22,962 nt of DNA from a virus. Lineage: Duplodnaviria; Heunggongvirae; Uroviricota; Caudoviricetes. This document shows, in pieces, positions 1 through 4,601 of the stretch (position 1 is its first letter; the number at the start of each line of letters is the position of its first letter). The notes under the pieces are model-generated. The model was not told the origin of the DNA. It worked only from the letters and a program-made list of their open reading frames with translations, and ran no database searches. The stretch lies in IMG/VR virus record IMGVR_UViG_2645727945_000010; one strand, given 5' to 3'. Both the position numbers and the translations under genes were made by a program.

Positions 1-3000
1 GAAGTCACCTCTGACCTGAGTCGCCTCCAGCATGCCCTTAATCGTACAGTTTTCATTTACCGTGACGTTGTTGAGCGTCCCGGCGTTCGCATTCACACTG
101 CCACTGATATCCGCATTTTTAGCGGTCAGCTTTCCGTCTGATGTCAGGGAAAATACCGGTGGATTTCCACCGCTGGTAATGGTGGGGGCCGTCAGGCGCT
201 TCAGGAACACGTCGTTCATGAACAGCTGATTCCCCTGCGCCACAAATAACGGCGTGCTGTTGCCGCTCTCCGGATTTATCATCGCGATACGGTCAGCCAG
301 CAGCAGTATGTTGCTCAGTGGCTGGCCATCAGTATCCTCAATCCCTGCACCAATCCCGGCCACATAGGGAATGCCGTCTTTCGTTTTTTGAACCTTCAGC
401 ATGTACAGCGCAGCCAGGTCATCATTTGTGTCCTTCTGCACGCGCTGTATCTGCTGTATGGTGGCGCTCTGGTTCTCCAGTGTTTTACTGACCGTCTGTG
501 TGATTTCATTGCGGGTTTCGGTGATGGTGGTCTTCATCTCCGCCATCTCATCCGCAAGCTGGCTGTTGTCTATCAGCTCCCATAGCCCCTGAGCCAGATG
601 CAGTTTTCCTATTTTTTCCCGGAAAAATTCCAGATACCCTTCACCATCATTGCTGGGCTGCCCGCTGACTTCCACAAACGCAGATTTCCCCACCAGGTTG
701 ACGCTGCGCACGTAAAACCAGAAATCCTTCCCGGGCTTAATGTGCGGGCCGGATACACTCCACTGACTGCCGGTCCCCAGATAACGGGCAGATTTTTCCA
801 CCTGTGCCGTGTTCGTGATGCGTTTTTCGGAGAACCAGAATTCAAACTGTACCGTCGGGTCATACACCGCCAGCACCGGTACCGCCGTTATCTGAAAATA
901 CCCCGGCGTCAGTTCAATGGTGGCGGGTTTTGCTGGCGCGTTAATCCGGAAGGTGGTGGTGGTCGGTTCGCCCTGCTGGCCATAACTGTTAATTGCCCTG
1001 ACTGTCAGGGTGTATTCCCCGAGCGGCAGACCACTGAAACGATGCTCTGTATCCGCAGTGATGGCGGTGGTCACCAGACGGCTGTCTTCTCCGCTTCCGC
1101 TGGTCAGGCGCAGACTGAAGCGCACACCCTTCACCACCCGCGGCGCGTCCCATTTCGCCTGTGCCAGATACTGACCGTCAGCCGCGCTCACCTCCACCGT
1201 CAGGTGCTGCACTGCCGGTGGAATAACGCTGTTCAGGGAACCTGACTGCGGCTCAAAGCTGGCCCCGTTATCCACAATGGCTTCTTTTTCCGGTACGTGC
1301 TGCACCGCCGTGATGGCAAAGGTGCCCTCCGTGTTTTCCCGGATGGAGACACAGCGGAACAGGCGACGACGCAGTGACGGCAGGGAGAGTCCCCATACAC
1401 CGTATGTCTCCACACCATCAGGCAGGGTGCTGACCTGTATCCGGTCCGGCGCGGGGTGTGCAGTGATGTCCACACTCACCGGCTTACCGCTGCCGTTAAT
1501 CAGGTTCACCGTGGCGGCACCGGTCTCCGGCAGGGTCACCTCACGGTCCAGTGTCAGGGTGCGGCTGGCGGCATCGATGGACAGGACACGTCCGCCGGTC
1601 ATGGTCCCGGCATAGTCGTTATCACAGATTTCAATAATGTCACCGGGTGTGTGACGCAGCCCCTGTGACCCGAGCGTGAAATCCACCGTCTGCGTTTCCA
1701 GCAGTCCGGTCTTTATCACCCACAGCCCGGCACGGTGGGCCTGACCGCGACTGGTGCAGCCGAACGCATCCATCTTCAGCAGGTTGCGCCCGTAGCGCAG
1801 TATGGCTTCCGGGTCTTCCACCAGTTCCGTGGAGGTCTGCCAGCCGTTCTGCGGGTCGGTGTAATTCACCTCCACCGCCGTGTGGCGGTCCTTCAGGGCG
1901 CTGAAGCTGTAGCGAAACCCCACGCCGTTATCATCCACCACCACATCGCTGTTGGTGTACGGCCACACCACATCCGACGGGCGGTCCTGAACGAACGTCA
2001 GCGTCTGGCCGTTCCATACCGGCATACAGCGCATCGCCGAGCAGAAATCACTGAGCACATCCCATGCCTTACGCTGTTGTGACAGGTACGCATTAAAGGT
2101 CATCCGCGGCTCGGTCCCCCCGAAACCATCCGGCACCGTCTGGTCGCAGTACTGCCCGATGGCATACAGCGCCCACTTGTCAACATCCGCCGCCCCCAGA
2201 CGTTTTCCCATGCCGTAGCGCGGGTGAGTCAGCATGTCCCACAGGCACCAGGCCGGGTTGTTGCTGTATGCCGGTTTCAGGCTGCCGTCCCAGATGCCGC
2301 TGTAAGTGCGTTTTTCCGGGTCATAGTTTGACGGTACCTGGATGATGCGACCGCGGATATGGTAGTTCACCGTCATCTGCTGACCGCCAAACTGCTCCGC
2401 ATCCACCTGCAGCCCCACAATCGCCGTGTTCGGGTAGCACTGTTTCACATCGATGATTTCGGTGTATGACGACCAGAGCGTCTTATTCTGCAGCTGGTCC
2501 GAGGTGCTGTCCGCTGTCTCCCGGACCATCCGGATGTTAAAGGGCCGCTCAGGCAGATTATCCAGAATCACCGACGCCAGAAACTGCGAGGTGGTCTTGC
2601 CGTTAATGGTGACATCCTTTTCCGTCACCCAGTTACCGTTGCGCTGCAACTGAATCAGCAGCCGGACAGAAGAGGGATTACGGTCGCCCTTTGAGGTGGT
2701 CTCCAACAGTGACTGCACCCCGAAGGTGACCCGCAGGCGGTCAATGTTCGCGGATGTAATGGTGCGCGTTACCGGCTTTGCCTTCGTCACTTCCACGCCC
2801 AGTCCGGTTTCAGCTCCGGAGGACTCAAAGCCTTCCGGTGGTGTCTGCTCCTGCTCCCCGGCGCGCCAGACCGCGGTCACACCGTGTATCACAGGATTGC
2901 CGTCCGTGTCCGTCAGCGGGGTTTTGTTCACCAGGATACTCTGCAGCCCCTTCACCGGGCCTTCTATCGGTCCCTCACCAATCGCATCAATCACACTCAT

Positions 3001-3069
3001 CATCTGCGTGGATTTGAGATTATCCTTCGCCTCTCGAGGCGTGTGCGCCCTGCCGCCACCTTTGCCCAT
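1..3069 (-). CDS. J: Host specificity / tail tip protein J, 3' end truncated by window edge (about 1023 codons present)
   Basis: Hand translation of the minus strand from ATG at 3069..3067 gives [38 protein letters not shown]... with no stop down to position 1. It resembles lambda gpJ along its length (e.g. [30 protein letters not shown]). RBS GAGAGG upstream. Absent from the ORF track because no stop codon lies in the window. Confidence 0.88.
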
Positions 3070-3085
3070 AATGTTCCTCTCAATT

Positions 3086-3202
3086 GGTATTATTAATCGC
3101 AGTGATAGGATATTGCACAGCTATTGCGCGATATCATCAGAACGCTGTTTGTTACCCTGTAACCAGCAAGCTCAGTCTGTTAACGGAATTAATGAGGGTT
3201 TT
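3086..3202 (+). promoter_or_regulatory. AT-rich upstream region of sodC, candidate promoter (no confident -35/-10 assignment)
   Basis: 133-bp gap between the divergent J start (3069) and sodC start (3203). AT-rich relative to flanking phage genes. RBS GAGGG at 3194..3198. Confidence 0.25.
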
Positions 3203-3730
3203 ATGAAATGTAAAATCATTGCTGCCATTGCCATGCTGACAGCAGCATCATGCGGATACGCAGCAGAACAGGAAGTCCCAATGAACCTTGTCAGTGCTGA
3301 CGGAAAAGAAGTCAGCATTGGAAAAATAACCATTCAGGAGACCCCCTACGGTCTGCTGTTCACACCAGCCCTTCACTCTCTGTCTGAAGGCATTCATGGT
3401 TTTCATGTGCACGAAAAAGGAAATTGCGCCCCGGCACTGAAAGACGGAAAACCGGTCGCAGCATTATCGGCTGGCGGTCACTTTGACCCGAAAAACACCG
3501 GCAAACATCTTGGCCCCTGGTCTCCGGATGGACACCTGGGCGACCTCCCTGCGCTGTTCGTGACGCATGACGGAAAAGCGAACTACCCGGTCCTGGCCCC
3601 GAGACTGAACTCATTAAAAGAGATTAAAGGGCGTTCTCTCATGCTTCATGCTGGCGGTGATAACCATCATGACCATCCGGAGCCCCTGGGCGGTGGTGGT
3701 GCGAGAATGGCCTGCGGCATCATTCAATAA
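3203..3730 (+). CDS. sodC: Periplasmic Cu,Zn superoxide dismutase (prophage cargo gene)
   Basis: ATG at 3203 with GAGGG RBS. 175-aa product [23 protein letters not shown]... has an N-terminal signal peptide and conserved Cu/Zn-SOD motifs ([61 protein letters not shown]). Resembles Salmonella SodCI / E. coli prophage SodC from memory. Confidence 0.93.
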
Positions 3731-3736
3731 TCAGTC

Positions 3737-3765
3737 AGGTAAGGGGCGGGCCCCTTACCTTTATT
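3737..3765 (+). terminator. Intrinsic terminator downstream of sodC
   Basis: Perfect 10-bp stem AGGTAAGGGG (3737-3746) / CCCCTTACCT (3751-3760), 4-nt loop, followed by TTATT. Confidence 0.6.
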
Positions 3766-3878
3766 CCTCAGGACGATAAATCCTTTCTCCCTGAAAAGAA
3801 CGGCACATCCTCCCTCTCTGAGTTAATGTTTTTGTCGTGACATAAGAATAATTCCTTACACTCAATCTTCGTAACGCT

Positions 3879-3915
3879 CCCGCAGTTCCTGTCCGTGAGC
3901 ACTGCGGGATTTTTT
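3879..3915 (+). terminator. Second plus-strand intrinsic terminator, 3' of sodC and abutting the I stop codon
   Basis: 8-bp stem CCCGCAGT (3879-3886) / ACTGCGGG (3901-3908), 14-nt loop, then A-TTTTTT (3910-3915). No T-tract in the minus-strand orientation. Confidence 0.5.
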
Positions 3916-3920
3916 CGCTT

Positions 3921-4601
3921 TTATGCCTGCCGCCCGATAACCACGACCTTTCCGCCCCCGCCTTCATCACGGGTACTGATGTCCTGGGATATACGGCGGG
4001 AGCCAACCAGCATTTCCCCGTAAGGCACCGGCATCGGGTTACCCTGGGCAATCATGTTGTCCAGTGACGAAAAATACGTGTTCTGTCTGCCGTTATCCGT
4101 GCTTTTGTACTCCGGTACTTTAGCCTTCGGGGCCAGCATCTGAGCCACACCACCCAGAATCATGCTGGCCCCCAGAGAAAACAGCATCGTGGTGGCAGAA
4201 AAACCACCGGCTGCCAGGGCTGAACCCCATAACGCCATTGATGCCCCGGCCGTGAAGAACGACCCCACGATGGCTGCCGCCCCCAGCACAATCTGCAGTC
4301 CGCCCTTTCCGGCTCCGGCCAGTCGCGGCACAATGTGGATGACCGTTCCCTCACCCAGCTGTTCGTGAAGACGGGCATACACCGCCTCCGGTGCCGTGTC
4401 ATCACCGGCAATACGTATCTGGTACCAGCCTTCGTTCATCTGACGGCGAAAGCCCGGCATCTGCATCGACAGGGCGCGAATGGCTTCCGCTGCCGTGTTC
4501 ACGTACAGGCTGAGGCGGCGGCCAAATCGTTGCAAATCCCCGTGAAGGCAGATGCGTGCCAGTGGCGGTGACGCCAGACAGAATGCGTTCGTCGTTGCCA
4601 T
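3921..4601 (-). CDS. I: Tail assembly protein I (lambda gpI-like)
   Basis: 226-aa product MATTNAFCLASPPLARICLHGDLQRFGRR... resembles lambda gpI along its length (QNTYFSSLDNMIAQGN, GGGGKVVVIGR C-terminus). Overlaps K 3' end as in lambda. Confidence 0.88.
   Translation of the reverse strand: MATTNAFCLASPPLARICLHGDLQRFGRRLSLYVNTAAEAIRALSMQMPGFRRQMNEGWYQIRIAGDDTAPEAVYARLHEQLGEGTVIHIVPRLAGAGKGGLQIVLGAAAIVGSFFTAGASMALWGSALAAGGFSATTMLFSLGASMILGGVAQMLAPKAKVPEYKSTDNGRQNTYFSSLDNMIAQGNPMPVPYGEMLVGSRRISQDISTRDEGGGGKVVVIGRQA

Follow-up and report, generated by a model that had tools for sequence, protein, structure and literature searches.

The locus analysed here raises the question of why a gene of opposite orientation stands between two tail genes of a lambdoid prophage, and how much of the DNA around that gene arrived with it. 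The gene lies within a stretch of 22,962 nucleotides of caudoviral DNA (IMG/VR record IMGVR_UViG_2645727945_000010), and this whole stretch is referred to as the window. An earlier note, made from the letters of the sequence, had described the gene as sodC, a periplasmic Cu,Zn superoxide dismutase gene, carried antisense between tail genes I and J on an 850-bp insertion with its own AT-rich upstream region and terminators. The follow-up analysis identifies the gene as the published sodC-F of Escherichia coli O157:H7, and it is very probable that sodC-F is a lysogenic-conversion cassette, or moron, that sits in the I-J spacer of a lambdoid prophage and points against the late operon. The right-hand part of the gap is assigned to an older small-RNA gene of the phage backbone.

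Identification of the superoxide dismutase

The coding sequence occupies exactly the interval in which the earlier note had placed it, 3203-3730 on the plus strand, with the ATG at 3203, the stop codon at 3728-3730, and 175 encoded amino acids. The product matched Pfam Sod_Cu (PF00080) with an E value of 3.9e-32 and 111.9 bits (cutoff 28.9) over positions 3-133 of the 133 profile positions, and it scored 218.4 bits against the NCBIfam SodC equivalog NF007628 (cutoff 165). Among PDB entries, the product was closest to bacterial Cu,Zn superoxide dismutases (about 1e-62), Salmonella SodCI (1eqw) being one of them; 1eso, the E. coli monomer, ranked lower, with 194 bits. The protein searches bear out the family assignment of the earlier note.

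The metal ligands were located in an alignment of the product with SodCI, SodCIII, the EDL933 copy, and human SOD1. The copper ligands are H68, H70, H93, and H149, and the zinc ligands are H93, H102, H111, and D114; all of these columns are invariant in this alignment, the human sequence included. The set of ligands, whose loss the earlier note had named as a reason to abandon its reading, is intact. R168 and C171 are invariant with R143 and C146 of human SOD1, which are the catalytic arginine and the C-terminal disulfide cysteine. C75 is kept across the four bacterial sequences. Because a bacterial loop insertion shifts its column relative to human C57, the disulfide pairing of C75 is a prediction. 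At the level of sequence, it is confirmed that the window at 3203-3730 encodes a SodC-family Cu,Zn superoxide dismutase with all of its metal ligands.

A candidate export signal was read at 3203-3262 (plus strand), with a possible signal peptidase I (SpI) cut after residue 20. An AASC lipobox was also read in the leader, and its cysteine, Cys17, is encoded at 3251-3253 (plus strand). The leader of SodC-F has been analysed and tested experimentally; an SpI cut between residues 20 and 21 and an AASC lipobox were described, and both fit the leader in the window (PMC2569942).

Identity with sodC-F of E. coli O157:H7

The 871 bp from the J start to the I stop, with sodC between them, match prophage Sp10 of E. 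coli O157:H7 Sakai without a single difference (100% identity), and the protein is 100% identical to the Sp10 product ECs_1989. The I-J gap differs from the Sakai Sp4 copy (ECs_1120) by 1 nt, which falls within sodC and causes L112P. The EDL933 copy of sodC that was compared also differs from that of the window by 1 nt, at the same L112P position. The window gene is the published sodC-F1/F2 of E. coli O157:H7, which was already described and experimentally characterised (D'Orazio 2008, PMC2569942). D'Orazio et al. 2008 placed the sodC-F genes of EDL933 in CP-933R and CP-933V (PMC2569942). The window gene agrees with SodC-F1 and SodC-F2 in position, orientation, leader peptide, and flanks, and its cassette shows no difference from that of Sp10. 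The surroundings, however, are mosaic relative to the Sp10 prophage, with a tape-measure gene of 3243 bp in the window versus 3081 bp in Sp10.

The published data describe the behaviour of the gene in the lysogen. Epitope-tagged SodC-F, expressed at its native prophage loci, was detected in cultures in exponential phase, in stationary phase, and under anaerobic conditions, and its expression did not depend on RpoS (PMC2569942). A lacZ fusion to the 299 bp 5' of the sodC-F start codon was reported as RpoS-independent, with data not shown (PMC2569942). SodC-F was relatively enriched in bacteria within Caco-2 cells, and sodC-F mutants were more sensitive to H2O2 (PMC2569942). Expression in lysogens, on which the earlier note had made its proposal depend, is in this way documented for the identical O157:H7 gene at its native prophage locus.

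SodC-F1 is a dimer with Cu and Zn and an activity of 19380 U/mg, and its stability exceeds that of chromosomal SodC (PMC2569942). The chromosomal enzyme of E. coli shares the fold and chemistry (PDB match 1eso), but it is monomeric, RpoS-dependent, made only in aerobic stationary phase, fully soluble, and both less active and less stable than SodC-F (PMC2569942). SodC-F is split between the soluble periplasm and the membrane (PMC2569942). The description of a periplasmic enzyme in the earlier note is correct for the soluble fraction, but a purely soluble enzyme is contradicted by the membrane-associated fraction and the AASC lipobox (PMC2569942).

The window as a whole is a mosaic lambdoid prophage segment that runs from the lysis genes to J, and 92-96% of it is covered at about 95% identity by records of Stx1a- and Stx2a-converting phages. 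In the neighbourhood of sodC, several non-O157 strains, one of them a giant-panda isolate, match it exactly, but their tape-measure gene is a different one, of 2580 bp versus 3243 bp in the window. In the portal region (12510-14932, minus strand), two overlapping open reading frames were seen, 12510-13571 and 13568-14932; in Sakai Sp10, which has the same gene order, two 'portal protein' genes are annotated, ECs_1974 and ECs_1975.

Locus layout and limits of the cassette

Gene I lies at 3921-4601 on the minus strand (Pfam Lambda_tail_I, E = 1.7e-16), and its product is called a tail assembly protein in the annotation of identical loci. Its start is annotated inconsistently in identical loci, with a length of 681 bp in LC567829, where it overlaps K by 103 nt, versus 582 bp in RefSeq. 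The N-terminal part of the tail tip and host-specificity gene J occupies 1-3069 on the minus strand as an uninterrupted frame of 1023 codons, which is annotated as gpJ in identical loci; its start codon is at 3067-3069, and its 3' part is cut off by the left end of the window. Since I lies at 3921-4601 and J starts at 3069, the I-J gap measures 851 bp. Within this gap, sodC converges with I, diverges from J, and runs against the late operon on the other strand. The antisense placement between I and J stands as the earlier note had it, and the gene is absent from otherwise homologous phages.

The limits of the cassette were determined from alignments with PhiR5_1, E2348/69 PP6, and Sakai Sp15, and five sodC-less loci were compared with five sodC-bearing loci. 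Homology stops at 3070, just past the J start codon, and resumes at about 3822; the cassette is therefore about 752 bp long. The full cassette, defined as DNA absent from sodC-less relatives, spans 3070-3821, with a right end near GAGTTAA that is fuzzy over about 3793-3826. In the sodC-less relatives PhiR5_1, E2348/69 PP6, and Sakai Sp11, Sp14, and Sp15, the I-J spacer is 240 bp, and comparison with them indicates that the cassette replaces about 141 bp of this spacer. In lambda itself, the I-J gap is about 60 bp. The 850 bp given in the earlier note are correct as the length of the gap, but the inserted DNA is shorter and is a replacement of older spacer DNA.

Two properties of a moron were found at this locus. 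The gene is present or absent at a gene boundary, as seen in sodC-bearing versus sodC-less homologous phages, and its base composition is unlike that of the flanking phage genes, with 52.8% GC in sodC, 59.9% in I, and 58.3% in J.

A GC-rich hairpin, CAGGCACC...GGTGCCTG, was observed in the sodC-less spacer (about 1700-1735 of the compared locus L001), with equivalents in the compared loci L007 and L008. Read on the strand of the tail genes, it precedes TTGTTTTTGTG, some 45 nt ahead of the J ATG, and forms a terminator-like site in the sense direction. This hairpin is absent from the window, where it was removed by the sodC cassette.

Distribution and Salmonella relatives

Of 5426 complete E. 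coli genomes, 541 (about 10%) carry sodC at 99% identity or more, at 717 places. The 1.2-kb I-sodC-J stretch was covered to at least 80% in 545 of the 5426. The agreement between 541 genomes with the gene and 545 with the whole stretch indicates that sodC appears nearly always in the I-J slot. Among 149 matching phage records, two cover at least 80% of the 1.2-kb I-sodC-J query; both are Stx2a-converting phages, and both carry sodC. The other phage records, among the matches listed, hold the I and J flanks only, which amount to 38% of the query. A divergent sodC (92%) in strain RM13322 was dropped: J is frameshifted there, sodC is unannotated, and the sequence looks like an assembly error.

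SodCIII of Salmonella phage Fels-1 belongs to the same family with the same ligands and occupies the same I-J slot in the same antisense orientation. It differs in having 60% amino acid identity, a sodC-I spacer of 53 bp, and no sRNA remnant. Salmonella phage Gifsy-2 encodes SodCI (59% identity), which is also prophage-borne, antisense, and inside the tail operon, but its slot is a different one, between a lom-like gene and L. Gifsy-2 SodCI is PhoPQ-regulated, whereas no PhoP box was found in the window at 3040-3215. A role in animal infection has, to our knowledge, been shown for Salmonella sodCI and not for E. coli sodC-F. The expression patterns of Gifsy-2 SodCI and SodC-F have been described as similar (PMC2569942). 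When the non-coding flanks of the window gene were aligned with those of Fels-1 and Gifsy-2, no credible homology was found. The data give no support for descent of the cassettes from one ancestor outside the coding region.

Upstream spacer and promoter search

The divergent spacer between J and sodC (3070-3202, plus strand) is AT-rich, as the earlier note had recognised, with 39.8% GC versus 56.3% for the window, and all of it is absent from sodC-less relatives. It contains the sodC Shine-Dalgarno sequence GAGGG (3194-3198, plus strand) and the J Shine-Dalgarno sequence, which is supplied by the cassette (3075-3081, minus strand). A sigma-70 scan of 2900-4100 at a threshold of 9/12 gave no promoter, including the region 5' of sodC. 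A relaxed scan 5' of sodC gave only 8/12 and extended -10 candidates. These are the candidate extended -10 element TGnTATTAT (3085-3093, plus strand) and the candidate promoter TTGGTA-16-TAGGAT (3084-3111, plus strand, with TAGGAT at 3106-3111). Because no site reaches 9/12 and only these 8/12 and extended -10 candidates were found, the position of the sodC promoter is putative. Since sodC lies on the opposite strand, co-transcription with the late genes is excluded.

Boxes for PhoP, FNR, CRP, Fur, OxyR-like, and SoxS/MarA regulators were searched in 3040-3215, and the best candidates still had 3 mismatches; no regulator is proposed. A perfect small palindrome, GTTAC-CCT-GTAAC (3151-3163, plus strand), was observed in the 5' region of sodC; it is the sole inverted repeat of at least 5 nt found in the spacer and matched no known regulator motif.

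Terminators and late transcription

Two sites with a hairpin plus a T-run were found 3' of sodC on the plus strand, at 3737-3760 and 3892-3908. In the region, 6 terminator-like sites were observed versus 0.9 expected from shuffles. The first of the two is the intrinsic terminator of sodC (3737-3769, plus strand), with a GC-rich stem of 10 bp and a loop of 4 nt, followed by TTATTCCTC. Its folding energy is -17.9 kcal/mol (z = -2.5), and its U-tract is interrupted (UUAUUCCUC). On the minus strand, the same hairpin is followed by GACTGA without a T-run, and both hairpins 3' of sodC have a T-run on the plus strand only. The earlier note had credited sodC with terminators of its own in the plural; this is right for 3737-3769, but the structure at 3879-3915 belongs to the backbone sRNA gene described below.

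The earlier note had further proposed that the terminators are orientation-specific and that late transcription can for this reason still read from I into J. The orientation is as described, but it is not needed for the read-through. Late transcription in lambdoid phages is Q-antiterminated, and Q-modified RNA polymerase ignores terminators, so Q antitermination would suffice. The cassette is unlikely to impair J, since the same cassette is found in the genome records of two Stx2a-converting phages. A weak terminator-like hairpin was also observed inside sodC on the strand of the late transcript (3446-3427, minus strand), with 6 pairs, a loop of 8 nt, and the tail CAATTTCCTT. The late transcript would be expected to pass this site by Q antitermination.

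The small-RNA remnant next to gene I

The backbone DNA between the cassette and gene I holds the body and terminator of a putative member of the PasB/EcOnc22-24 sRNA family (3833-3916, plus strand), with the terminator stem at 3879-3908 and the T-run at 3910-3915. The segment 3822-3920 is present in sodC-less PhiR5_1 and, in more diverged form, in E2348/69 PP6 and Sakai Sp11, Sp14, and Sp15. The copy at 3833-3916 is 95% identical to that of PhiR5_1 (83-nt body), 61% identical to PasB, and 63% identical to the Sakai Sp15 copy.

PasB of enteropathogenic E. coli E2348/69 is an 83-nt, Hfq-stabilised, Northern-confirmed RNA encoded at NC_011601.1 1466343-1466261, and these coordinates fall between I and J. 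Read as its reverse complement, the PasB probe agrees with the PhiR5_1 copy at 20 of 23 bases and with the window copy at 18 of 23. EcOnc22, EcOnc23, and EcOnc24 of EHEC Sakai are about 85 nt long and are destabilised without Hfq, and EcOnc22 is Northern-validated. Their Hfq-CRAC peaks lie between I and J in Sp15, Sp14, and Sp11, respectively. When carried over to NC_002695.2, the peak coordinates, given on NC_002695.1, fall about 129 nt away from the sRNA body, toward J. We attribute this shift to a difference of 128 bp in length, which we take to exist between the two versions of NC_002695. The reverse complement of the EcOnc22 Northern probe matches the I-J gap copy of Sakai Sp15, and because of this match the identity of EcOnc22 with the Sp15 copy is settled despite the coordinate shift.

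A sigma-70-like promoter, TTCACA-N-(T/A)ATAAT, stands 5' of the sRNA body in all five sodC-less loci. It is absent from the window and from all five sodC-bearing loci, where TCCTCC occupies the -10 position. From this comparison of loci, it is concluded that the sRNA promoter in the window is replaced by the sodC cassette while the body and terminator survive, and that the hairpin at 3879-3915 ends the backbone sRNA gene and is no part of the cassette.

The remnant occupies the side of the gap nearest I and runs antisense to the tail genes, with its intrinsic terminator beside the I stop; the stop codon is 5 nt from the T-run. With PasB and EcOnc22-24, the window copy shares this position, the terminator (CUGCGGGAUUUUUU), and short internal blocks, but it is 61-63% identical to them and lacks the TTCACA-N-TATAAT promoter. 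No Rfam match was obtained in the window at the gathering threshold, nor in the PhiR5_1 locus at E<=1. RNAalifold, applied to four sRNA variants, gave invariant terminator pairs only and no covariation. The Hfq-CRAC table of Sakai lists no peak for Sp4 or Sp10, where the gap bears sodC; a distance-to-CDS filter applied by its authors could have removed one. The missing Sp4 and Sp10 peaks are weak evidence that the sRNA remnant is silent.

PasB (1501-1583 of the compared locus L007, minus strand) and EcOnc22/23/24 (about 2132-2213 of L008, plus strand; L009 and L010) were observed at the same position of the I-J spacer, with a shared promoter layout and terminator and about 70% identity. The two are not equated in the sources consulted on PasB and EcOnc, and the PasB source table records EHEC homologues for PasA and PasD alone. 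A text search of the papers on PasB and EcOnc22-24 and of the Tree supplements found no mention of sodC, and a link between sodC-F and the sRNA is absent from the published sources checked.

Alternative explanations

With its promoter replaced by the cassette, the sRNA might be made only by read-through from sodC. The two would then form one transcription unit, in which read-through of the UUAUUCCUC terminator yields a 3'-UTR-derived sRNA under sodC control. The arrangement suits this idea: the sRNA is co-oriented with sodC, it begins 72 nt 3' of the sodC terminator, a relaxed promoter scan between sodC and the sRNA body gave no promoter-like site, and the first terminator has an interrupted U-tract. 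An intact stem is kept in the sRNA terminator, and the body shows 95% identity to a copy that does have a promoter. Conservation of the body carries no information here, however, since the cassette is close to clonal throughout. At -17.9 kcal/mol, the first hairpin is strong, and the Hfq-CRAC peaks, subject to the filter mentioned above, occur in the Sp11, Sp14, and Sp15 gaps and not in those of Sp4 and Sp10. A joint transcription unit is considered unlikely, roughly a one-in-five matter in our judgement.

A second alternative takes the whole 851-bp gap as one insert, with both hairpins serving as tandem terminators of sodC. Both do lie 3' of sodC on the plus strand, and both have T-runs, but the segment 3822-3920, second hairpin included, is 95% identical in PhiR5_1, which has no sodC, and in sodC-less loci it forms a Northern-validated, Hfq-dependent sRNA with its own promoter. 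As sodC-less loci hold this segment, the single insert with tandem terminators is refuted, and very little credence is left to it.

That sodC is a silent or decaying passenger without a role in the lysogen is barely credible: no consensus promoter was found, but the reading frame and all catalytic residues are intact, the gene is conserved at 99% or more in 541 genomes, and expression and a mutant phenotype have been published for the identical gene (PMC2569942).

Proposed mechanism and significance

The reading of sodC-F as a lysogenic-conversion cassette is preferred, and the following course of events is proposed for it. In the repressed prophage, sodC would be expressed from the AT-rich spacer shared with J, independently of late transcription and of RpoS. 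The SodC-F precursor would be exported through its N-terminal signal; most of it would be released by signal peptidase I, and a fraction would stay lipid-anchored at Cys17. The enzyme would then remove superoxide in the cell envelope. The strong plus-strand terminator is predicted to halt sodC transcription before it enters I in the antisense direction. During lytic growth, the Q-antiterminated late transcript would cross the cassette from I into J, for which the cassette would provide the ribosome-binding site. In the history of the locus, the cassette probably took the place of the promoter-proximal portion of an older spacer, one that encodes an Hfq-dependent sRNA.

As regards the gene itself, the finding adds little, in that a characterised accessory antioxidant gene of EHEC prophages was found again. 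The locus illustrates the moron principle, with an autonomous and oppositely oriented cargo gene inside a tail operon. Beyond the literature checked, the only addition is an anatomical one, namely that an Hfq-dependent sRNA gene, the normal occupant of the I-J spacer, lost its promoter to the cassette. This displacement joins two prophage features that were described separately, sodC-F and PasB/EcOnc22-24. In sodC-bearing prophages, the sRNA may accordingly be silenced or rewired. If read-through from sodC does occur, the sRNA would be a 3'-UTR-derived riboregulator that is co-controlled with an oxidative-stress cargo.
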